From: a virus
Taxonomy: Duplodnaviria; Heunggongvirae; Uroviricota; Caudoviricetes
Length of the DNA stretch: 37,713 nt
Direction: 5' to 3' (one strand)
IMG/VR virus record: IMGVR_UViG_2802429240_000007
The notes under the pieces are model-generated. The model was not told the origin of the DNA. It saw only the letters and a list, made by a program, of their open reading frames with translations, and did not search any database. Below, one piece after another: positions 1,150 to 37,477 of this stretch. Every line of letters begins with the position of its first letter. Position 1 is the first letter of the stretch. Position numbers and translations under genes: made by a program.

Positions 1150-1728
1150 CTAATTACTGCTGGTCGCCATCGCTCGGATTGAGCGTAAATCATCCAGGTT
1201 GCTCAACCTCTCTTTCATCTCCCGCTGACGTTGATAAATCTCGTCGTTGCGATCGACCTGCGCCTGCGCCATTGCTGCTGCCAGTTCTTCCAGTTCCGGC
1301 ATCGACAGTTTCACCTGTTGATTATCGGCGTCACCCCACGCCATAACGTCCCGCGCCGTGTCAGATTTCGCAGCCATTACCACAGGATAAAGACGGGCCA
1401 TTGAGTCGGGGCCAGCATTCCAGGTACGACCGTTCCATTCGAACGTGAACGGCAGTGCTTCCTGTTCTGTTCGCCACGCCTCGATTTCCCGCTTTTTGGC
1501 ATCTTTTGCCGCTGCGATAAGTTCAGGCGTGACTGTAAACGGGGCGATTTCACCCCATTTGCCGCTCTGTAACTCTTCCCAGATGCGCTGGCCTGTCGGC
1601 GCAGTATCATCCTGCATGGCGGTATACGGGACGAATTCCGTTTCACCTTCAAATAGCACCTCGCAATCAACCGCGCCATTTTCGAGATAATGCGCGTTTC
1701 TGATGCCTTTTACCGCTCTGATTTTCAT
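1150..1728 (-). CDS. Tail fibre assembly protein (Tfa-like chaperone)
   Basis: 192 aa immediately downstream of the large fibre gene; Tfa-like architecture; last phage gene before the host junction. Confidence 0.7.
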   Translation of the reverse strand: MKIRAVKGIRNAHYLENGAVDCEVLFEGETEFVPYTAMQDDTAPTGQRIWEELQSGKWGEIAPFTVTPELIAAAKDAKKREIEAWRTEQEALPFTFEWNGRTWNAGPDSMARLYPVVMAAKSDTARDVMAWGDADNQQVKLSMPELEELAAAMAQAQVDRNDEIYQRQREMKERLSNLDDLRSIRAMATSSN

Positions 1729-1742
1729 GTTTTATTTCCTCG

Positions 1743-4700
1743 TTACTCGATGCGCACAAACAGGCAGATACGACCGCTTGTTCCGTAAGAGTCCCTGACC
1801 CCGGATAACGCCATATAACGCCCCGGAAAAGTGTACCCTGTAGCTCCTGCACTCGGTGTGGAACCGTAGGAGCCAGCCCCCGCAGAAGATATTGTGCACG
1901 AAAGATTAACTCCGCCCAGTTGTGACCCTGGCACCACATCACCCAGGCCAATTTTGATTTCTTTATCCCCGGAAGTTGTTCCGCGATAAACAGCAAGCAC
2001 CGGAACACCAACTGCCGGGTATTTGAAATATGAGCCTGAGCCTGCCGTTCGGGACAGCAGGAACGCCAGCGAATCGCCGTCGTAAATGATGGGGCTTACT
2101 GTTGCATTCCAGTTGTTTCCACTCCAGCGGTAAGTCAGGCGATGAATGCTGTGCTCACCTTCGTAATACTGGTTAAAACACAGCAGCATTTTGAATTTAC
2201 GCGTTGTGTCCGATTCATCGTTATCAAAGGGCGACCACATCACATCAATGATGCCGTTAAATTTTGTGGTGCCTGCCAGTAGTGTGGAAGAGTCCGCAAT
2301 ACTGACCGCATAACGCCCCGGGGTGGCCTCTTTCAGCCATTCAGCAAAATCGGCCTGTCCGTCAAACGCCAGAGCGTCGGTGCTGGCAAATGCCTGACCG
2401 AATCCGTACATGCCGGACAGTGCCAGCCTGCCCGGTGTGCGGTCGCGGATATCGCTCTGGGGCTCCATCGTCGCAGCCGTTTTCAGACCAAGATATTCCA
2501 GCACCTCATTTTTAGAATTCTGACCAATTAACACCCGACCGACCGCAGTCAGATTTGCCAGCGCCATGACGTTTTTATCACTGAAATAAGGCAACTTATT
2601 ACCGGCAGTAACCAGTCCTGATAATGACGTCAGTATTTCATTAAGCGGCTGTTTACCTGCCAGGGCGTTAGTGACCGTTGTTGCAAAGTTCGGGTCATTA
2701 CCCAGCGCCGCTGCCAGCTCGTTCAGTGTGTCCAGTGTTTCCGGGGACGAGTCAACCAGCGCGGCGAGCAGTTTGCGGACAAAAGCCGCATTGGCTATCT
2801 CAGTGCCTGCTGCGTCATCCGGCGGGGTTGGTGCTGTCGGAGTTCCGGTCAGTGCCGGACTTTTCAGTGGTGCGCGGGCTTCAATCAGTGCCCTGAGTGA
2901 AGCCTCATCAACCTTCAGGTTTTCCCAGCCAACCAGATAACCACCACCTGATGCCACCGCGCAACGGTTATAATAAATATGACCATTAACACCATAATAA
3001 ATAATTATCTTATAGGCATACTCATCATTCGGGCTGGTTTTAGGTTGTGGCCAGATAATTTCAATAACACCGTTTGTCTGTATGCCAGGTACCACCACAT
3101 TTGTGTCCGCAAATACGGTATAACGACCGGGTTTTGCTGTTTTTACCCACCTGAGAAAATCAGTCCCTGATTTAAATTCAGTTCTGTCGCTACTGGAAAA
3201 TATTTTCCCGAAACCGAACATGCCGGGAATCGCCAGACGACCTTCGGTGCGGTCGTAAATATTCTCCTGCGCATCCTTCTGTGCTGCATTGCCAAGTTGT
3301 GGCGTCAGATTCGTCCAGGTGACCGGGGCGGAGATATTATCGCCACGAACGGTCATAAGAATCCGTCCGTCTTTTCCAAAAAACAGAACCAGCTTTGTTG
3401 CTGTCTGGCTGGTTTTGTCGCCCCAGTTGTTATCCAGCCAGATAATTTCTGTTATTCCGGTTGTTTCTTCCGTTTGTGTGGAAAAGGTGTAATACCGTCC
3501 CGGGTGCAGGTTGTGCGCAGTTCTGGCTACAGTCGCCATATCGCTGGCAATGATTGAACGCGCTCCGGCGTCCGTCATTCCGTAACCAAATGCACCAGGC
3601 AGCGCAACGCGGCCTTCCGAGCTGTCGTAAAGGTCTGTCTGAATGTCCCTTACCGCTGCGCTTTTCAGCTCAAGCTCATTGCGCATGGTTTCCACTGTGG
3701 CCTGTGCCAGCAGTGACCGGGCTTTTTCTGACAGCGGAGACAGTGAAGCATTCCCGTCCTGATTAAAGCACAGAAGCTTATCCGCCCGTTCTTCCAGATT
3801 ACTGATTGCGGTTAACACGTCACTGAGTGGTTGTTTACCCGCCAGCGCGTTCATGATTGTTGTCGCAAACTCCGGGTCATTGCCCAGCGCCGCTGCCAGC
3901 TCGTTCAGCGTGTCAAGGGCTTCCGGCGACGAATCAACCAGTGCGGCAAGCAATTTGCGGACAAATGCCGCGTTCGCGGTTTCCAGACCGACTGCATCGT
4001 CCGGTGGGGTTGGTGTGGTTGGCGTGCCGGTGAACGCCGGGCTGTCCAGTGGCGCTTTTGTTTTCGTCTCGTCCATGACGGTTTTGACGGCTTTTGGCGT
4101 GGCTGCCAGTTCTTCGCTGTCGTTGTCTGTATCACTACAGAGTTGCACCAGGCCTTTTTCTGTCGTGGAAGCATTGCCTCCCTTCAGGTCATCAACTATC
4201 CGTTGCGCGTCGTCCCTGTGCTGTTTCGCATTCTGCTCGCTTTTTGCTGCCGCTTCGGCGCTGGCTTTTGCCTCGCCGGTCAGCGTTGCGGCTTCACCGA
4301 GTTTATCAACAGCCTTATCGACAATTTTGTCTGCGTCCTTAACGGCCTGCTCTGCGCGGGCCGCATCCTGCGAAGCTGATGATGCCAGTAACGCCACCTG
4401 CTTTTTGTCTTCGGCAACGGCCTCTGCATTCTGCTGTACGTTATTCGCCAGCGTCTGACAGTCATCCTTAATCTTCTGCGCATCAGTAACGTGCTGTTCT
4501 GCCAGCCGCTCGCTTTCCGCTGCCGCTTCCGCGCTCTGCTGCGCCTGCGCCACCATTTCCTCGAAGCGTTTCACCACGTCGGGTTTGAGGTCGCCTTCAT
4601 CGGGGGCGGTCAGAAAATCATTCAGTGTGCCGGGCTTTGAATCGTCGTAAATCGAAATGTCACCCACACAGCACTTGGGGCCGTTCTTTTGCTTGATGTG

Positions 4701-4880
4701 TACGGTGTATTTGCCTTTTTGCGCTTCAAAGGCATACTGTCCCGCCGCATCGGTTTCAATAACCGCGAATGATTCAGTGACCACTTCACTGGTATTAACC
4801 AGTGCATCTAAATAAATTTTGCATTCCGCCATCGGAACGCCAGCGCCATTAATAAGCGCCCCTGAGATCAATACAGACAT
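1743..4880 (-). CDS. Side tail fibre protein, mosaic, 1045 aa
   Basis: N-terminus (ISGALINGAG...GDISIYDDSKPGTLNDFL) resembles the lambdoid Stf N-terminal domain; Ala/Glu/Lys-rich coiled region; two copies of a ~75-aa collar segment (SPAFTGTPTTPTPPDD... and SPALTGTPTAPTPPDD...); three paralogous C-terminal-type modules; GAGG RBS before the ATG at 4880. Confidence 0.8.
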   Translation of the reverse strand: MSVLISGALINGAGVPMAECKIYLDALVNTSEVVTESFAVIETDAAGQYAFEAQKGKYTVHIKQKNGPKCCVGDISIYDDSKPGTLNDFLTAPDEGDLKPDVVKRFEEMVAQAQQSAEAAAESERLAEQHVTDAQKIKDDCQTLANNVQQNAEAVAEDKKQVALLASSASQDAARAEQAVKDADKIVDKAVDKLGEAATLTGEAKASAEAAAKSEQNAKQHRDDAQRIVDDLKGGNASTTEKGLVQLCSDTDNDSEELAATPKAVKTVMDETKTKAPLDSPAFTGTPTTPTPPDDAVGLETANAAFVRKLLAALVDSSPEALDTLNELAAALGNDPEFATTIMNALAGKQPLSDVLTAISNLEERADKLLCFNQDGNASLSPLSEKARSLLAQATVETMRNELELKSAAVRDIQTDLYDSSEGRVALPGAFGYGMTDAGARSIIASDMATVARTAHNLHPGRYYTFSTQTEETTGITEIIWLDNNWGDKTSQTATKLVLFFGKDGRILMTVRGDNISAPVTWTNLTPQLGNAAQKDAQENIYDRTEGRLAIPGMFGFGKIFSSSDRTEFKSGTDFLRWVKTAKPGRYTVFADTNVVVPGIQTNGVIEIIWPQPKTSPNDEYAYKIIIYYGVNGHIYYNRCAVASGGGYLVGWENLKVDEASLRALIEARAPLKSPALTGTPTAPTPPDDAAGTEIANAAFVRKLLAALVDSSPETLDTLNELAAALGNDPNFATTVTNALAGKQPLNEILTSLSGLVTAGNKLPYFSDKNVMALANLTAVGRVLIGQNSKNEVLEYLGLKTAATMEPQSDIRDRTPGRLALSGMYGFGQAFASTDALAFDGQADFAEWLKEATPGRYAVSIADSSTLLAGTTKFNGIIDVMWSPFDNDESDTTRKFKMLLCFNQYYEGEHSIHRLTYRWSGNNWNATVSPIIYDGDSLAFLLSRTAGSGSYFKYPAVGVPVLAVYRGTTSGDKEIKIGLGDVVPGSQLGGVNLSCTISSAGAGSYGSTPSAGATGYTFPGRYMALSGVRDSYGTSGRICLFVRIE

Positions 4881-4927: not shown

Positions 4928-5362
4928 TTACACGTCAGGTTTTTCCGGCCACTGAATTAAATCAAAGGAAGATTTATCACTGACCTGACTTAAATCCAGC
5001 GCCTTTACCTCCCTGATATACATCATCCACTGTGTCAGGCGTCCCTTGTCTGCATCGCTGATGGTGCCCAGCTCCAGCTCGATTTTCCAGTCGGAGGTGA
5101 TTTCCCTTGCTTCAGCCAGCAGGTGCTGGCGTTGCGTTTCCGCTTTCTGCTGCCAGTTAATTACGGGTTCTTTTAATACCGGATATCCGTTTTCGCCGGA
5201 TACAATAATAAAACCGTCAGTCTGACCCTGTAACAGTCTCTGATATTCTTCATCCGTGATTTTCTGTAAATCACCAGGCCACGTTCCCGCATTTTCATAA
5301 TCATTCTGAAGGTCAGAATGATAAAAACCGTTTGTTGATGGGCTGAAATAAATAGTCATCAT
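4928..5362 (-). CDS. Tail fibre assembly protein (Mu U-like chaperone)
   Basis: 144 aa; start overlaps the stop of the upstream fibre gene (ATGA at 5362); position matches Mu U. Confidence 0.65.
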   Translation of the reverse strand: MMTIYFSPSTNGFYHSDLQNDYENAGTWPGDLQKITDEEYQRLLQGQTDGFIIVSGENGYPVLKEPVINWQQKAETQRQHLLAEAREITSDWKIELELGTISDADKGRLTQWMMYIREVKALDLSQVSDKSSFDLIQWPEKPDV

Positions 5363-6243
5363 TAATACCCTATCGCTGTCCAGTACATAACGCCGTTATT
5401 CTCGCTGTTGAATGTCGCACCTGCTGCTGATAATGATTTCAGGGAAATAGAGTAATCAGCACGGGTATATGCGTTGGTAATAGTGATGCTGGTACATGCT
5501 GACGGAAATGATATCGGAAACGTCAGCCCGGCACCGGCATTGCCGAGATACCCCCACTGAATAATCACCCCGGTGGACGTGTCCTTAAACCAGCCATTAC
5601 CGGCTTTTGACGCCGTGTTTTTTTGCTGGTAACGGTTGTCACCTTCAGTTTGTGACATTCCCGCAGAAATCGTGATATCGCCGGAGCCGTCAAAGAGCAC
5701 ATTGTTAATCCTGCGGGCCGTCTGAAGGCGGGTTGCCGTTCCGGCGTTGCCGCTGATGCTGTTGATGGTGATATCCGAAGTCAGGGCCATGCCGTTGACC
5801 TTACGCGCTTTCGGCACACCGCTGATGTTATCCAGAAACAATTGTTTATTCGGGATATCTGCGCCGTTACGGTCTTTTGCCAGTCTGGCATTTGCGTTAT
5901 CCATCGCAATTTTTACCGCTTTGGGCGTGGCTGCTTCTGTTTCTGATTCACTGTTAACAGCACTGTTAAGCTGCACTACGCCTTTTTGCGTCAGCGATGC
6001 ATCCGGGACTTTCTGGCCAATAAACGAGGTCAGCGCCTCAACCAGCTGGTTTTGTTTTTTCGGATCCGGGGTTACGCCAGCCTCTTTAAGGACGTTAATC
6101 ACCTCCTGCTGCAAATCGCGCGTTGCTTCCTGATGATTATTCATATATTCAGCGGTAACAATGGTTCCCTCTATCCCCTGAGTCGGGTCACCATCATGAA
6201 ATAACTTGTCCGGTGTATTAACCGGAGTCATTAAATTCTGCAT
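5362..6243 (-). CDS. Tail fibre protein (short, Mu S-position)
   Basis: 293 aa; contains the ATPKAVK fibre motif also present in the large fibre; Gly/Ser/Thr-rich C-terminus; coupled start/stop with both neighbours. Confidence 0.6.
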   Translation of the reverse strand: MQNLMTPVNTPDKLFHDGDPTQGIEGTIVTAEYMNNHQEATRDLQQEVINVLKEAGVTPDPKKQNQLVEALTSFIGQKVPDASLTQKGVVQLNSAVNSESETEAATPKAVKIAMDNANARLAKDRNGADIPNKQLFLDNISGVPKARKVNGMALTSDITINSISGNAGTATRLQTARRINNVLFDGSGDITISAGMSQTEGDNRYQQKNTASKAGNGWFKDTSTGVIIQWGYLGNAGAGLTFPISFPSACTSITITNAYTRADYSISLKSLSAAGATFNSENNGVMYWTAIGY

Positions 6244-6815
6244 TATTCCTCCACCTCATATGTGAAATAACAGTCTGTAAAAGCCGGTTTAAGGTCTTTA
6301 AATGTGTTTTCTAAAATGGATTCACCAAAGGCCGTCAGCGGCTCGCCGGTTGCCGATGCCCCCGTTCTGAAACGGTAGACCGGCGTTTTTGTTCCGATAA
6401 CATTGACCTGCCATGCCCAGCGGATTTCCGGTATCAGCAGACGGTCGCCGCAGCGGTTTATCCCCACCCGGAATGGTCGCGGCTCCGTAATGGTGATGGT
6501 ATAGCCCAGGCTGGCGGCAAGGCTCTTAAAGTAAGGGATTGACAGCCCGCCTGTGGCTGCCATTTTTACCAGGATATTCTGCCGCCGCTCCTGTTGTGTG
6601 GCACCTTCACGGGGGACAACACCGTACACGCGCTCCCAGTCGGACAGCGTCATCGATGCCTGCAACGGGGTGATTTGTGCCAGAACGCTCGCCGCTGATG
6701 CCTTCACGGCCTCCATGACGTCAGCCTCGGCTGCCAGCTCTGCAGAAATATAATTCCCGTTCGGGTCATAACTGACAGGCGGCAGCATGGCGCGAAATAA
6801 ATCGACCATATTCAT
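6243..6815 (-). CDS. Tail/baseplate protein (Mu gp48-like, DUF2313/YmfQ-like)
   Basis: 190 aa; position and sequence character consistent with Mu gp48; family assigned from memory. Confidence 0.6.
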   Translation of the reverse strand: MNMVDLFRAMLPPVSYDPNGNYISAELAAEADVMEAVKASAASVLAQITPLQASMTLSDWERVYGVVPREGATQQERRQNILVKMAATGGLSIPYFKSLAASLGYTITITEPRPFRVGINRCGDRLLIPEIRWAWQVNVIGTKTPVYRFRTGASATGEPLTAFGESILENTFKDLKPAFTDCYFTYEVEE

Positions 6816-6818
6816 GAA

Positions 6819-7898
6819 TCACCCCTCACGCGGAAAAGACTGAATATCAATATTTCCCGGGCGCAGCCATTCCCACGTTGACGCGTTAATAATGGCTTTT
6901 ACGTTGTCTGCAGGCGTAACGATTCGCCGGTCACTCACGCCGGAAATGAGTGAAATCTGGGTTTCCAGTTGTGAAATAATTAATTCTTGCCCCGGCTCCA
7001 GTCGGTTCATAAAATCCGTGATAACGTCAGTTATCTGCGGTTTTATCTGCTCAACGGTCAGGCCGCTGGTTTTTACCCGGACAACGAAATCAACGGCTTT
7101 TTTCGTCGGGGCCAGTACCATCGTGTCCTTCGCTGTAACCGGGCGGACTTCCTCAATATGTGCCAGCACGGCATTAATCAGTTCCTGAGAGGGAAGATCA
7201 TTAGCTGACGTAATGGCCACATCAACCGTCCCCAGTCCACGACGCAACGGCTCCACATACGCAGACGTAACGCCATCCACTTCCAGCGCCCAGCGTTTGT
7301 AATCATATTTGTTACCGCCAGCGGGCGGCCTGCGCAGAATATCCAGATAACGCGCCAGCAGGTCGGCGTCGCTTTCCCTGTCCGTTCCGCCGGTCAGGGA
7401 TTTAATCGTCACCGTGCTGTTGATGCCTTCCGGCGGGCTGACCAGCGTTGCCGTCTGCGTCGTGGATGCATTCGTCTGTGCACCCGTGGCGGTGCTTTTT
7501 ACCGTCACCTCCGCGCTGCCTTCATCACCGATGGTGCAGTCTGCTGTGGTGGCCACGCTGACACCTTCACCACGAATTTCCGCACCGGCTGGCAGCGTCT
7601 TACCGGGTGTGCCGGTAATCACTACCGGACCGGATGAGGCTGTTGCTTTTTTACGAAAAACATTGCGCGTGCGACAGTGTAGCTCCAGATATTCAGGGTC
7701 TGCCGTGTCAGGAAACACCTGACGGAGTATCCACCCCTGATGCATATAAAGCCCGTCAGCCACGCCGGATACGGCATTTGCACGAATGCGGTAATCGCTG
7801 TCAGCGCCGGTGTCTATGGTTTCTCCCGGCAGGGCGTTAGCGATATCACGTAGCTGGCGTTCTGTGTTTTCAGCAACGCCCGGAACAGGAAACGGCAT
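6819..7898 (-). CDS. Baseplate J-like protein (Mu gp47-like)
   Basis: 359 aa; synteny between the gp46-like and gp48-like genes; baseplate J family character. Confidence 0.7.
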   Translation of the reverse strand: MPFPVPGVAENTERQLRDIANALPGETIDTGADSDYRIRANAVSGVADGLYMHQGWILRQVFPDTADPEYLELHCRTRNVFRKKATASSGPVVITGTPGKTLPAGAEIRGEGVSVATTADCTIGDEGSAEVTVKSTATGAQTNASTTQTATLVSPPEGINSTVTIKSLTGGTDRESDADLLARYLDILRRPPAGGNKYDYKRWALEVDGVTSAYVEPLRRGLGTVDVAITSANDLPSQELINAVLAHIEEVRPVTAKDTMVLAPTKKAVDFVVRVKTSGLTVEQIKPQITDVITDFMNRLEPGQELIISQLETQISLISGVSDRRIVTPADNVKAIINASTWEWLRPGNIDIQSFPREG

Positions 7899-8248
7899 TA
7901 CATAATCCTCACAGGGTGTTCAAACGTCTGCGGTGTGCCCGCGTTATCCGTGACGGTGATTAACAGCAACAGCCAGCCGCGCTGGCCCGCTTTCGTGTCA
8001 ACGGTAATGGATTTTGCCCGCCCGTCATCGAGCAGTGGCTGAAGTGCCTGGCTGGCATACTGCGCCGCCAGTCTGTGAACACGGGGAACGTCTTTTTCCC
8101 GCTTCAGCTCGTGCAGGCGTGACCCCAGCGACGCATCCGCCCAGTAACTGCCAAGCGGTGTCGCCAGTCGCAGATAAACCGCGTTATGGAGTGTGTAAAT
8201 CCGGCGGCGTTCGTAGTCGCCGGTTGCAGGTGAAATCGTCTGGTCCAT
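7898..8248 (-). CDS. Baseplate protein (Mu gp46-like, GPW/gp25-like)
   Basis: 116 aa; synteny; preceded by the conserved late motif at 8287-8301. Confidence 0.6.
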   Translation of the reverse strand: MDQTISPATGDYERRRIYTLHNAVYLRLATPLGSYWADASLGSRLHELKREKDVPRVHRLAAQYASQALQPLLDDGRAKSITVDTKAGQRGWLLLLITVTDNAGTPQTFEHPVRIM

Positions 8249-34283: not shown

Positions 34284-34523
34284 TCATTGCCATACGACGG
34301 TGCAGCCGTCGATACAGGACGTTTTCACCACGCGGCGCAGGCCGCTGAATGTCTGGATGATTTCCGTTACCGGCCATACAGGACCACCCACGGGCGGGCA
34401 GGCATAAACCACAGGTAAACGGTGATGCTGTCCCGTTACACGACCGCCAGTGGTGTGGATGGCCACACGGGCACGGGAACGGACGGCGTTAATGGTCTGC
34501 TTGTCCATCGTCTTGTTCTCCAT
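34284..34523 (-). CDS. Hypothetical small early protein
   Basis: 79-aa ORF; start overlaps the B stop. Confidence 0.4.
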   Translation of the reverse strand: MENKTMDKQTINAVRSRARVAIHTTGGRVTGQHHRLPVVYACPPVGGPVWPVTEIIQTFSGLRRVVKTSCIDGCTVVWQ

Positions 34524-35416
34524 CAGTGAATTAACATTTCTGCGAATTTATCAATGGCCTGCACACTGACCGGTGCATCGCTGATATCACAAATCCGGTA
34601 CACACCGCGCGCCAGTTTGAAGAGGCGGCGGGCATTACCCAGCGAGCGTGCGTAAAGCGCCTCGCTGATTTCCGGTTCTGCTGCTTCCGGCATCAACCCG
34701 GTAGCTATCTGGTTAAAATCTTCCTGCGACAACGTATCGCCCAGGTTAAGCGCCAGCGCCACACGGCTGTATAACTGGGCGAACTCACCACGACGCCCCT
34801 TAAGGTTAATCAGAAGACGAGGCATACCCGCCAGGACAACCCCGATACCCGCTTTGTCATGCAGACGACGCAGAACCTCCAGTGCGCGATAGGGGAGCAG
34901 TTCAGCCTCGTCCACCATCAGCAGGCGACCGGAATCACGCAGTTCGCGCACACAGGCATCTATCAGTTCGTGAATGTTGCCGCGAACCTTTACCCCCAGC
35001 TGGCGGCACAACTCCTCAAGCAGTGTTCTGGCTGTATAGCCCGGGTCAGCCTCAATCAGGACCGCATCCCGGTTTCTGGCGGCGTATTCACGCAGAATCA
35101 TTGTTTTGCCAAGACCTGCCGCGCCATACAGTACGCAGATTTCACATTCCAGGTGAGCATAGGCCAACACCTCCAGTCCTTTGGCAGCCATACCGGTGGC
35201 AACAAATTTCGCTTTAATACGGCGGCTGTTTTCCTTTTCCCGCTCACGGGTCACAAAGGCAGAAATGCGTTCTTCAATATCAGCCATATCGCCCTGATAT
35301 TTACCCTGTAAATACTGGTTGATAACGGCGCTGCTACGACCAATAGCACGGGCGACGTGGGTTTGCGTATAGCCGCGACGGGCCATTACGTCATTTAATT
35401 GCGTAATTAAACTCAT
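34523..35416 (-). CDS. DNA transposition ATPase (Mu B-like)
   Basis: 297 aa; N-terminal HTH-like segment; Walker A GAAGLGKT; Walker B-like LLMVDEAE. Confidence 0.85.
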   Translation of the reverse strand: MSLITQLNDVMARRGYTQTHVARAIGRSSAVINQYLQGKYQGDMADIEERISAFVTREREKENSRRIKAKFVATGMAAKGLEVLAYAHLECEICVLYGAAGLGKTMILREYAARNRDAVLIEADPGYTARTLLEELCRQLGVKVRGNIHELIDACVRELRDSGRLLMVDEAELLPYRALEVLRRLHDKAGIGVVLAGMPRLLINLKGRRGEFAQLYSRVALALNLGDTLSQEDFNQIATGLMPEAAEPEISEALYARSLGNARRLFKLARGVYRICDISDAPVSVQAIDKFAEMLIH

Positions 35417-35434: not shown

Positions 35435-37477
35435 TTAACGGTTGTTTGTGCCGTTTTTCTTTAAATTGCGCTCGCGTTCAGATGCGAATAAATAAAGTTC
35501 TTCTTTTTCCTTTTTCTCCTGGCGTTCCAGTCCATATCCCAGATTAAACTCAGGCTTCTGCGTAATAGCCGGGGTAAGCTCGCGTTTAGCCTCTTCGATT
35601 TTCTGCGCGGCCCGTGCAATGCGGCCTCTGACGCGTTTCTCCAGTTTTTGCTCGATAACTGGTTTAGCGAAGGCATCAACCTTGTTACCGTTCCAGATGG
35701 CATCGCAGATATAAGAGCCATCAGCCCGCCGGACAATGACACTGTTTGCATCATGAATATCGTAACTGACCCTGACTTCATTCCCGTGCTCTGCGGCCAG
35801 CTCATACGAGTAATAAATATTGTTGAATAACTGAATTTCCCCGCGAAATGTTTTGCGCGTCACTTCCGGTCTGAACATTTCATGCAGTTCTTCCGGCGAC
35901 AGGAAATCAATTTCAACATTCTGCTCTTTTATCAGTTTCCGGCGATACGCTGCCGGGCTGTAATATTCGCCATCCTCTTTGCGGGGAAGGCTGCTGTGTG
36001 GCCGGTTGTTATAGCGTCTGACCTCCAGTTCTATGGCTGCCATCAGTTGCTCAAAGGTGGGGATTTCATCCCTCGCCTTAACCTGCCGTTTTGTCAGTTC
36101 TTTCCCTTTGTGGGTGGCCTTAATGGCTGACTGCATAATCCGTTGCTGCATCATTACGGTTTCCTTGTCTGCTCCCTTTGAGCAGTACGTCTGGAAACTC
36201 AGGGCCACATCCCGGGGAATTTCCTTGTTAAGCCTTTCAATCACCCCGCGCCCCTGCGGGTTACCTGGTATCCCCGTGTGATGTTCCACACCCAGCCGGG
36301 GGAGAATCCCGGTAATATCGGCATCAAGAACCCGGTTTTTTTCGCCGCCCCCGTTATCGGAGTAATAAATCAGCGGTATCCCGTGCTGTGCCATGCCGTA
36401 ACGCAACGCATCAGCAACGGCTATCACGTTCTCCGACAGGGACAGCGACCAGCCCACAACAAAGCGTTGCCCCGCATCCATAACCAGCGTCACTTCTGGC
36501 CGGAAAATATTGCCGGTCAGTGGGTTAAACGCGGTCATCTTCATACAGTGACCATCCCCGACCCATACCGCATTAACCGGTAGCGATGTCCAGTCGCGCC
36601 GCACAAAGGGATTGAGCGAACGCCAGGCTGAACCGGTGGAGCGGAAACGCTCCTTAACAATCACCGGGACGTTGCTTAACACCCGTCTTACTGCGTGAAC
36701 GGAAGGCAGTGCTGCCAGCATTCCCGCATCATTCGCGTGTTTTTCATGCCACCAGGCTGAAAACTCGCGATACGCATATTCAACGGTCGGGCGCTTCCAT
36801 GAGCGATAGAACATAAAGAAATCGCTCAACCACCAGACCTGCTCCCACGGAGTTCCCTTATGATGACCGGGAGCCAGTAACGCCAGTAACTGATTGGCAT
36901 CACCGCGCGCCATCAGCCAGGCGGAATACCATTCCTGTAAACTCCCTGTACTGACGCCAGTTCGCTTACCCTGCCGGGCATTGGCGGTATTACCTGCCAC
37001 AATAACGCGCTCTGGCAAAGCCTCCTGGCGGATACCATCAACGATGTGTTTTATCGCTGCCGTCCTGGACATTCCTGCGTATTCACGCAGTTTATGCACT
37101 TCGGTAGCCAGCAATATCCGCGCATCAGCGATGGCCTTTTGCTTGTCGGTCAGTGCCTGAACTTCGCGTAATGCCAGTTCCGGGCATTTGACCATCACTT
37201 CCAGTTCATCGCGAACGGTAACGTTTTTAACTGCCTTCTGCTCAACCACGGCAGGCAGTTGTGCATCTTCCAGAACCTGATGGGTCAGGCGCTTACGTAA
37301 AACCTTCTGCGCTTCAGCGGGCAGACAGTCGATGTGATACTCGAATGCTTTGGTGCCTTCACGCTTGCGCTTCCATTCCGGGTGCGTCTCTGTGATCCGA
37401 TTGAGCGTCCAGCGCACCCCCTGAACTGTACCGGGCAAACCAGGAAGACCGGCCAGCTCATTGGCTGAATAAAACAT
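35435..37477 (-). CDS. DDE transposase (Mu A-like)
   Basis: 680 aa; N-terminal DNA-binding region and central catalytic core of MuA-like size and layout; directly between ner and B. Confidence 0.9.
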   Translation of the reverse strand: MFYSANELAGLPGLPGTVQGVRWTLNRITETHPEWKRKREGTKAFEYHIDCLPAEAQKVLRKRLTHQVLEDAQLPAVVEQKAVKNVTVRDELEVMVKCPELALREVQALTDKQKAIADARILLATEVHKLREYAGMSRTAAIKHIVDGIRQEALPERVIVAGNTANARQGKRTGVSTGSLQEWYSAWLMARGDANQLLALLAPGHHKGTPWEQVWWLSDFFMFYRSWKRPTVEYAYREFSAWWHEKHANDAGMLAALPSVHAVRRVLSNVPVIVKERFRSTGSAWRSLNPFVRRDWTSLPVNAVWVGDGHCMKMTAFNPLTGNIFRPEVTLVMDAGQRFVVGWSLSLSENVIAVADALRYGMAQHGIPLIYYSDNGGGEKNRVLDADITGILPRLGVEHHTGIPGNPQGRGVIERLNKEIPRDVALSFQTYCSKGADKETVMMQQRIMQSAIKATHKGKELTKRQVKARDEIPTFEQLMAAIELEVRRYNNRPHSSLPRKEDGEYYSPAAYRRKLIKEQNVEIDFLSPEELHEMFRPEVTRKTFRGEIQLFNNIYYSYELAAEHGNEVRVSYDIHDANSVIVRRADGSYICDAIWNGNKVDAFAKPVIEQKLEKRVRGRIARAAQKIEEAKRELTPAITQKPEFNLGYGLERQEKKEKEELYLFASERERNLKKNGTNNR

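Follow-up and report, generated by a model that had tools for sequence, protein, structure and literature searches.

Two old copies of a conserved fibre unit in the tail-fibre gene of a Mu-like prophage, with a core that probably doubles as a homologous joint

The tail-fibre gene of a Mu-like prophage was found to encode, in one reading frame, two copies of a segment of about 90 residues, R1 and R2, which are specified by a direct DNA repeat. The DNA analysed (the window) is a stretch of 37,713 nucleotides from IMG/VR virus record IMGVR_UViG_2802429240_000007 (Caudoviricetes). The comparisons described below make it probable that R1 and R2 are two old copies of a conserved fibre unit, and that the core of this unit doubles as a homologous joint in a modular fibre family. 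The repeated DNA segments would be the coding sequences of the two old copies of what is a widespread unit, and their core of about 100 nt, with its 26-nt perfect run, is the point at which related single-unit fibres switch from one type to the other.

A repeat search of the first 8 kb of the window revealed one direct-repeat family, the two copies of which are both in frame and spaced by 1182 nt, exactly 394 codons (Table 1). Gapless alignment of the copies gave 79% identity over 236 nt, MAFFT was concordant, and blastn of copy against copy returned 78.8% over 236 nt (E 2e-54). Shifted to 2372 further offsets within the fibre gene, this 236-mer gave an identity of 0.255 +/- 0.032, with a maximum of 0.373, which places the repeat ~17 SD over chance and rules out chance or low-complexity similarity. 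The direct repeat of ~240 bp that the initial annotation had placed inside the fibre gene is thus real, with 79% identity against a background of 25.5 +/- 3.2% and at most 37% at any other offset. The 85-90% identity claimed there holds for the core of the repeat only (95% over 40 nt, 90% over 60 nt, and 88% over the 100 nt at 2683-2782 and 3865-3964), and the intervals that it gave imply an offset of 1175 nt, which, taken literally and without gaps, yields 26% identity; the true register is 1182 nt. Exact matching between the copies extends for at most 26 nt (CTGAACGAGCTGGCAGCGGCGCTGGG, coding strand). The similar-looking plus-strand ORFs that had been attributed to the repeat do follow from it, since their starts lie exactly 1182 nt apart and their products are 78% identical over 68 aa.

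Table 1. Features of the fibre locus, in positions of the window (aa, residues of the fibre protein)
Feature	Position	Strand	Basis
DUF4376 gene, downstream of fibre gene; conserved partner in all related loci	1150-1728	-	Pfam, PHROG, locus comparison
Tail-fibre gene, 1045 aa, intact ORF	1743-4880	-	ORF list, translation, Pfam PF08400 + PF03406, PHROG tail-fibre families
Distal part, aa 761-1045: linker L2, D3, C-terminal tip	1746-2600	-	Segment map
Domain D3	2076-2465	-	Segment map
Protein unit R2, aa 669-760	2601-2876	-	Alignments; part matches PDB 9d93
DNA repeat copy encoding second protein unit (R2)	2638-2873	-	Same alignments as for first copy; repeat search, MAFFT and blastn
Antisense ORF, 89 aa, repeat by-product, without evidence of being a gene	2671-2940	+	ORF list
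26-nt perfect run, copy R2	2701-2726	-	Copy alignment
Inter-repeat module, aa 366-668: linker L1 and paralogous domains D1, D2	2877-3785	-	blastp between segments
Domain D2	2877-3275	-	blastp between segments
Domain D1	3276-3650	-	blastp between segments
Protein unit R1, aa 275-365 (KAPLDSPAFTGTPTTPTPP...LDTLNELAAALGNDP...KQPL)	3786-4058	-	Alignments; unit profile search
DNA repeat copy encoding first protein unit (R1)	3820-4055	-	79% to 2638-2873, E 2e-54
Antisense ORF, 201 aa, repeat by-product	3853-4458	+	ORF list
26-nt perfect run, copy R1, within core where hybrid alleles switch type	3883-3908	-	Copy alignment; switch mapped separately
Single PF03406 'phage tail fibre repeat', aa 238-277, directly before R1, itself unduplicated	4050-4169	-	Pfam
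Stf-type N-terminal attachment domain, PF08400, aa 1-133	4482-4880	-	Pfam E 1.6e-47; PDB 9e7m

The fibre protein is laid out as a Stf-type N-terminal domain, an Ala-rich coil, PF03406, R1, L1, D1, D2, R2, L2, D3, and a tip. Over residues 1-92 the protein aligns with a PDB 9e7m chain, 'Tail fiber protein', that we take to be the lambda Stf N-terminus. This alignment and the PF08400 match uphold the earlier assignment of both repeats to one side tail fibre gene, the N-terminus being of the lambda-Stf type. The protein identity of R1 and R2 is 77-87%, varying with the bounds chosen. Protein similarity reaches past the DNA repeat, with R1-L1-D1 aligning with R2-L2-D3 over ~240 aa, and blastp between segments showed D1, D2, and D3 to be paralogues, at identities of 29-45% and E values of 1e-15 to 1e-22. 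Each unit heads one distal block, R1-L1-D1-D2 or R2-L2-D3-tip, and the fibre therefore has an extra internal module of 394 residues. AlphaFold2 modelled aa 366-668 poorly (pLDDT 50.6, with only D2 at 74-85) and aa 660-1045 unusably (pLDDT 36.2), and a Foldseek search of the PDB with the inter-repeat domains returned no match at E<=0.001, so that any function ascribed to the unit or to D1-D3 is putative. A weak Foldseek resemblance of the inter-repeat domains to baseplate or receptor-binding chains of staphylococcal phages was also seen.

The unit consists of a Pro/Thr-rich SPxFTGxPTxPT stretch, followed by a FVRKLLAALVDSSPExLDTLNELAAALGNDPxFATT stretch that is probably helical. A search of 1.84 billion representatives with the R1/R2 profile retrieved 22,979 proteins at E<=1e-3, of which 7,330 remained at E<=1e-10. 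The unit (SPxFTGxPTxPT...LDTLNELAAALG) was thus found both to match by profile and to recur within fibres, and it is without a curated model, as neither copy has a Pfam or NCBIfam match, even at E<=10. Near-complete units were counted in 154 proteins, comprising the window fibre, four E. coli fibres, and the top 150 profile matches, a ranking that favours multi-copy proteins; two units were present in 67/154 and three in 49/154, with a maximum of 11. The top 150 matches mostly carry 2-11 copies, in tandem at ~74 aa or interspersed with other domains. The copies in the window differ from the tandem arrays that other multi-copy proteins can form, in that their spacing is 394 aa and two globular-looking domains intervene. 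The description of the repeat as encoding a 'duplicated collar segment' is accurate as to a duplicated in-frame protein segment (aa 275-365 and 669-760) but not as to its identity, since the Pfam Collar domain (PF07484) matches neither unit, even at E<=10. Part of R2 matches residues 194-256 of PDB 9d93 'tail collar fibers gp4' (E 1.7e-13), and a LVDSxPxxLDTLNELAxALG core is common to the window unit, gp4 and, weakly, the 'Fiber Upper gp68' of 6v8i. A literature search for PDB 9d93 or Rac-SA53 returned nothing useful.

Several measures bear on the age of the two copies. The identity of R1 and R2 is 0.83-0.90, 0.90-0.95, and 0.48-0.53 at the first, second, and third codon positions, respectively, and the Nei-Gojobori method gave a dN of 0.106 and a dS of 1.006 (dN/dS ~0.1). 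Across loci, dS was 0.08-0.43 between orthologous copies, compared to 0.59-1.0 between paralogous copies. Both units were recognised, by at least one motif, in 120/120 of the closest protein clusters (77-90% identical, 951-1087 aa; the best 120 of 7,859 homologues), and the core motifs were spaced by 391-394 aa in the 119 of these 120 that were measurable. Median identities in these clusters were 97% for R1-R1, 94% for R2-R2, and 86% for R1-R2. At 25 diagnostic nucleotide sites in 22 two-unit alleles, R1 was almost purely of type 1 and R2 of type 2. Taken together, the dN/dS ratio, the 120 clusters, and the diagnostic sites indicate, at the level of sequence, that R1 and R2 are old copies that have descended as separate lineages without homogenisation, and that their DNA similarity persists mainly through purifying selection on the protein, with synonymous sites almost saturated. 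Gene conversion between the copies is ruled out by the dS values and the diagnostic sites. Minor exchange between the copies is suggested only by short patches, for instance NFATTVT in a number of R1 sequences. The two-unit form, as seen in more than 100 protein clusters, appears to be stably inherited.

Related fibre genes encode proteins of 643-1087 aa in discrete architectures, namely two units as in the window (1042-1087 aa), one unit followed by L-D3-tip (643-775 aa), R1-L1-D1-D'-other tip (747-788 aa), D2-like-R2-L-D3-tip (849-854 aa), and two units at other spacings (901 and 1006 aa). The inter-repeat module, aa 366-668, is missing in the single-unit alleles. At least 13 of these are hybrids, in which the diagnostic sites are of type 1 upstream and type 2 downstream and the switch falls within the conserved core; those identified by the 25 sites include L003, L005, L007, L039-L043, L047, L049, L059, and L060. 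The single repeat of a hybrid has the 5' part of copy 1 and the 3' part of copy 2, without an indel at the junction. The switch falls between codons -20 and +39 of the LDTL anchor, and L047 switches earlier than the other hybrids, so there must have been at least two crossover positions. The hybrids could have originated by intragenic deletion between R1 and R2, or by exchange between different single-unit fibre genes. That the switch falls in the core indicates, on the evidence of the aligned alleles, that the core has served over evolutionary time as a homologous joint for joining, swapping, or deleting distal modules.

The initial annotation had proposed that recombination between the repeats would delete or amplify one module, so that the locus may be length-polymorphic, and had suggested a comparison with related prophages. 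In that comparison the nearest Mu-like relatives in IMG/VR, L059 and L049 (96.5% and 89% identical, respectively, over the baseplate genes, window 5912-7900), were found to have at this locus fibres with one unit, 775 and 643 aa long. The 654-aa fibre of E. coli SC418 lies in a prophage at ompN-uspF, a site where two-unit alleles also occur, and is 93.6-93.8% identical to them on either side of the missing 1176 nt; it differs by ~6% from the nearest two-unit allele, and among 5426 complete E. coli genomes SC418 alone gave a contiguous single-unit match to its sequence. Three-unit (amplified) alleles were absent from 67 IMG/VR loci, 8 E. coli/phage loci, and the 120 closest protein clusters, and no recent deletion or exchange event was caught among the compared alleles. 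Matches of ~4.2 kb in IMG/VR, which resembled amplified alleles, proved to combine the fibre gene with the one that precedes it. The discrete lengths, the hybrid units, and the fibres of L059 and L049 thus bear out the predicted length polymorphism on an evolutionary scale, whereas ongoing instability was not seen; the single hybrid units with a switch in the core fit deletion of the module as well as exchange between different fibre genes, and not one amplified allele was found among the loci and clusters compared.

The two-unit gene itself could have arisen by duplication or by fusion. Fusion of two single-unit fibre lineages, rather than intragenic duplication, is a serious possibility, to which we give somewhat less than an even chance. 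The parents would have been N-...-R1-L1-D1-D'-tip' and N-coil-D2-R2-L2-D3-tip, joined by homologous exchange at the conserved start of a D domain, and R1 and R2 would be copies from different genes that were later brought into one. Forms like both parents exist, the former in L004, L028, L030, and L032 (747-788 aa) and the latter, with a D2-like domain, in L006, L033, L034, L035, and L057 (849-854 aa). The homology between L004 and the window ends at nt 1685 (aa 562), within the conserved DRTEGRLAIPGMFGFG motif of D2, and an R1-R2 dS of ~1 fits long separate histories. However, the reverse is equally possible, with the parental-type architectures derived from the two-unit gene by exchange, and the ~240-aa collinear similarity of R1-L1-D1 and R2-L2-D3 also fits an old block duplication.

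RecA-dependent recombination is strongly suppressed by a sequence divergence of 21%, and its minimal processing segment is about as long as the 26-nt longest perfect run seen here. Events at the repeat should therefore be rare and, given a run of this length, the two copies are ill suited to recombine often within a lineage. The same two properties disfavour RecA-dependent instability of the kind required if the repeat were a young, actively unstable duplication, with isolates or stocks mixed for one, two, or three modules, an explanation that we regard as very improbable. A direct arrangement at 1.18 kb, a core of 88% identity, and a perfect run of 26 nt would suit it, as would the tolerance of phage recombinases for divergence (PMC3945230), but it is at odds with a dS of ~1.0 and a third-position identity of ~0.5, with diagnostic sites that separate cleanly in 22 alleles, and with the failure to find a three-unit allele among the loci and clusters compared. 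Moreover, the occurrence of two copies at a spacing of 391-394 aa in 119/120 closest clusters means that the repeat is neither a recent duplication nor an assembly artefact. De Paepe et al. (2014) reported that diverged sequences are recombined by Rad52-like recombinases of phages; among these sequences was the stf region of lambda and Rac, which has 88% identity and a longest perfect run of 49 bp, and a substrate of 79% identity was tested as well (PMC3945230). In the lytic cycle, 12% divergence lowered recombination only ~100-fold, while 4% divergence led to a 10,000-fold reduction on E. coli plasmids (PMC3945230). For two old copies with a core that acts as a joint, exchanges would be rare and probably aided by relaxed phage recombinases, in co-infection or in encounters between prophage and phage; they would alter fibre length and probably receptor specificity, and the locus is unlikely to be rapidly unstable within a single lineage.

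The remaining explanations have hardly any standing. A mis-joined or collapsed repeat is of negligible probability, as the same architecture and spacing occur in complete E. coli genomes (L001 and L002), in tail3 of phage Rac-SA53 (L008), in 18 other contigs of IMG/VR, and in the closest 120 protein clusters, and the ORF is intact across both copies. Template/variable repeats of a diversity-generating retroelement (DGR) and repeats bounding an invertible segment of the Mu G type both occur in fibre genes of phages, and this prophage resembles Mu, but there is next to no chance that the repeat represents either. The 50 mismatches are not adenine-specific (A in R1 at 10/50, A in R2 at 16/50), comprise 33 transitions and 17 transversions, and fall mainly at third codon positions; the repeats are direct rather than inverted, and the stretch from the fibre operon to the prophage end contains no ORF of a size for an invertase. 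The operon ends within ~80 nt of that end (~1067), which therefore leaves no room there for an invertase gene.

The window holds most of a Mu-like transposable myovirus prophage, with genes for a Mu transposase, a MuB-like ATPase, the Mu portal, Mu F, gpT, a tail sheath, Mu baseplate proteins, and Gp48. The fibre gene is located at the right end of this prophage, which ends at ~1067 beside araH. The host flank is only ~90% identical to E. coli. A megablast search of the phage collection gave no match to the prophage body. Two fibre sets are present, one consisting of a 293-aa fibre and a PF02413 chaperone, and the other of the Stf-type fibre and the DUF4376 gene. The PF02413 gene (4928-5362) lies upstream of the Stf-type fibre, after the other fibre gene; the position directly after the Stf-type fibre, where a Tfa-type chaperone (PF02413) was looked for, is occupied by the DUF4376 gene, the product of which is presumed to be an assembly or accessory protein. 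The carrier also differs from that of a lambda-Stf-type side fibre, being a contractile-tail Mu-like prophage and not a lambdoid phage with a non-contractile tail.

The full architecture, from the N-terminal domain and coil through PF03406, R1-L1-D1-D2, and R2-L2 to a D domain, is shared with Rac-SA53 tail3 (ALP46863.1, KU052037) and with E. coli alleles of ~1045 aa, which are annotated as 'prophage tail fiber N-terminal domain-containing protein'. Tail3 is 91.7% identical to the window over 2 kb at the nucleotide level, and its R1 and R2 are 100% and 90% identical as proteins, whereas its N-terminal domain is ~70% identical and its distal D domain and tip are of another type (44% and 34%). 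In Rac-SA53, as in the window, the fibre is followed by the same DUF4376 gene and preceded by a second fibre and chaperone; the rest of that phage differs from the Mu-like window. Lambda Stf and K-12 Rac StfR have PF08400 (~40% identity to StfR), an Ala-rich coil, and one PF03406 repeat in common with the window fibre, but lambda and K-12 Rac are lambdoid, in contrast to the contractile-tail prophage described here, and the distal half of K-12 StfR is unrelated and has no copy of the repeated unit. As the unit is wholly absent from it, K-12 StfR is ruled out as a model of the architecture.

Recombination at conserved segments of fibre genes is long established. Mosaic fibre genes that recombine at such segments were reportedly described by Haggard-Ljungquist et al. 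in 1992, Sandmeier in 1994, and Tetart et al. in 1998, for P2 H, Mu S, P1 S, and lambda Stf and for the conserved boxes of T-even gp37. There, as here, a conserved stretch in a variable gene marks the exchange point for distal receptor-binding parts, and short, diverged homology suffices for the exchange. The window fibre differs in that the conserved stretch occurs twice in one gene, so that the joint can also remove an internal module.

The repeated unit and the swapping of modules are real, but they represent ordinary phage-fibre modularity and no new mechanism. The family provides a documented example of fibres built from blocks, in which natural proteins of 643-1087 aa have been re-joined at a core of ~100 nt within a widespread but uncurated 90-residue unit. 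For annotation, a family model for the unit would be worthwhile, and for engineering, chimeric fibres could be spliced at the unit core. As a speculation to which we give a low probability, the two-unit fibre may be a natural dual-specificity fibre, with R1-L1-D1-D2 as a lateral receptor-binding knob, R2-L2-D3-tip as the terminal one, and the unit as a standard plug. In that case, fibre host range could be engineered by splicing at the unit as it stands, and in nature it would act as a plug by which receptor-binding blocks are added, dropped, or swapped through homologous exchange among phages as unrelated as Mu-like, Rac-like, and P2-like ones.

Nearly the whole window (1067-37713) was found to be occupied by a Mu-like transposable prophage, in which the transposase and ATPase genes are accompanied by other Mu-type genes, including those for the Mu portal, Mu F, gpT, the sheath, and the Mu baseplate. 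A megablast search with window 5400-30000 returned no match among 50,697 phage-collection records. The E. coli homology of the host flank ends at position 1067, and identity there is only ~90%; the bacterium is therefore probably an Escherichia other than E. coli, or else a close relative. TGTAACTTCGCGTTTTTTTC (near 1060), at this homology break, looks like the end of the prophage, and the inverted repeat just inside that end may represent transposase-binding sites.

Features of the prophage, its host flank, and its fibre region (window coordinates)
Feature	Coordinates	Remark
Host flank, araH	1-1067	
25-nt inverted repeat	1074-1098 and 1129-1153	72% complementary; just inside prophage end
Second, small direct repeat	4491-4535 and 4218-4262	45 nt, 80% identical; Ala-rich coil region of the 1045-aa fibre gene
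Shorter fibre gene with own chaperone	4928-6243	293 aa (PF03406 + Gp53-like_C); chaperone PF02413
MuB-like ATPase	34523-35416	
Mu transposase	35435-37477	

The shorter fibre gene and its chaperone lie directly upstream of the 1045-aa Stf-type fibre gene, so that two sets of fibre genes are present in this phage, a pairing also seen in E. coli prophages and in the Escherichia phage Rac-SA53.

In E. coli K-12 StfR, the similarity to the 1045-aa fibre is confined to the N-terminal domain, the coil, and the PF03406 repeat, and the repeated ~90-residue unit is absent; annotations of the type "StfR-like" thus mask very different distal halves. In NCBI records, many close homologues of the 1045-aa fibre bear the name "shikimate transporter", evidently an annotation error that has since been propagated.

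The closest relatives of the prophage are two IMG/VR contigs, L059 and L049, with nucleotide identities to the window of 96.5% and 89%, respectively, over 5912-7900. Their Stf-type fibres (775 and 643 aa, respectively) are single-unit and carry a D domain unlike that of the window fibre, indicating that near-identical phages differ in their fibre modules.
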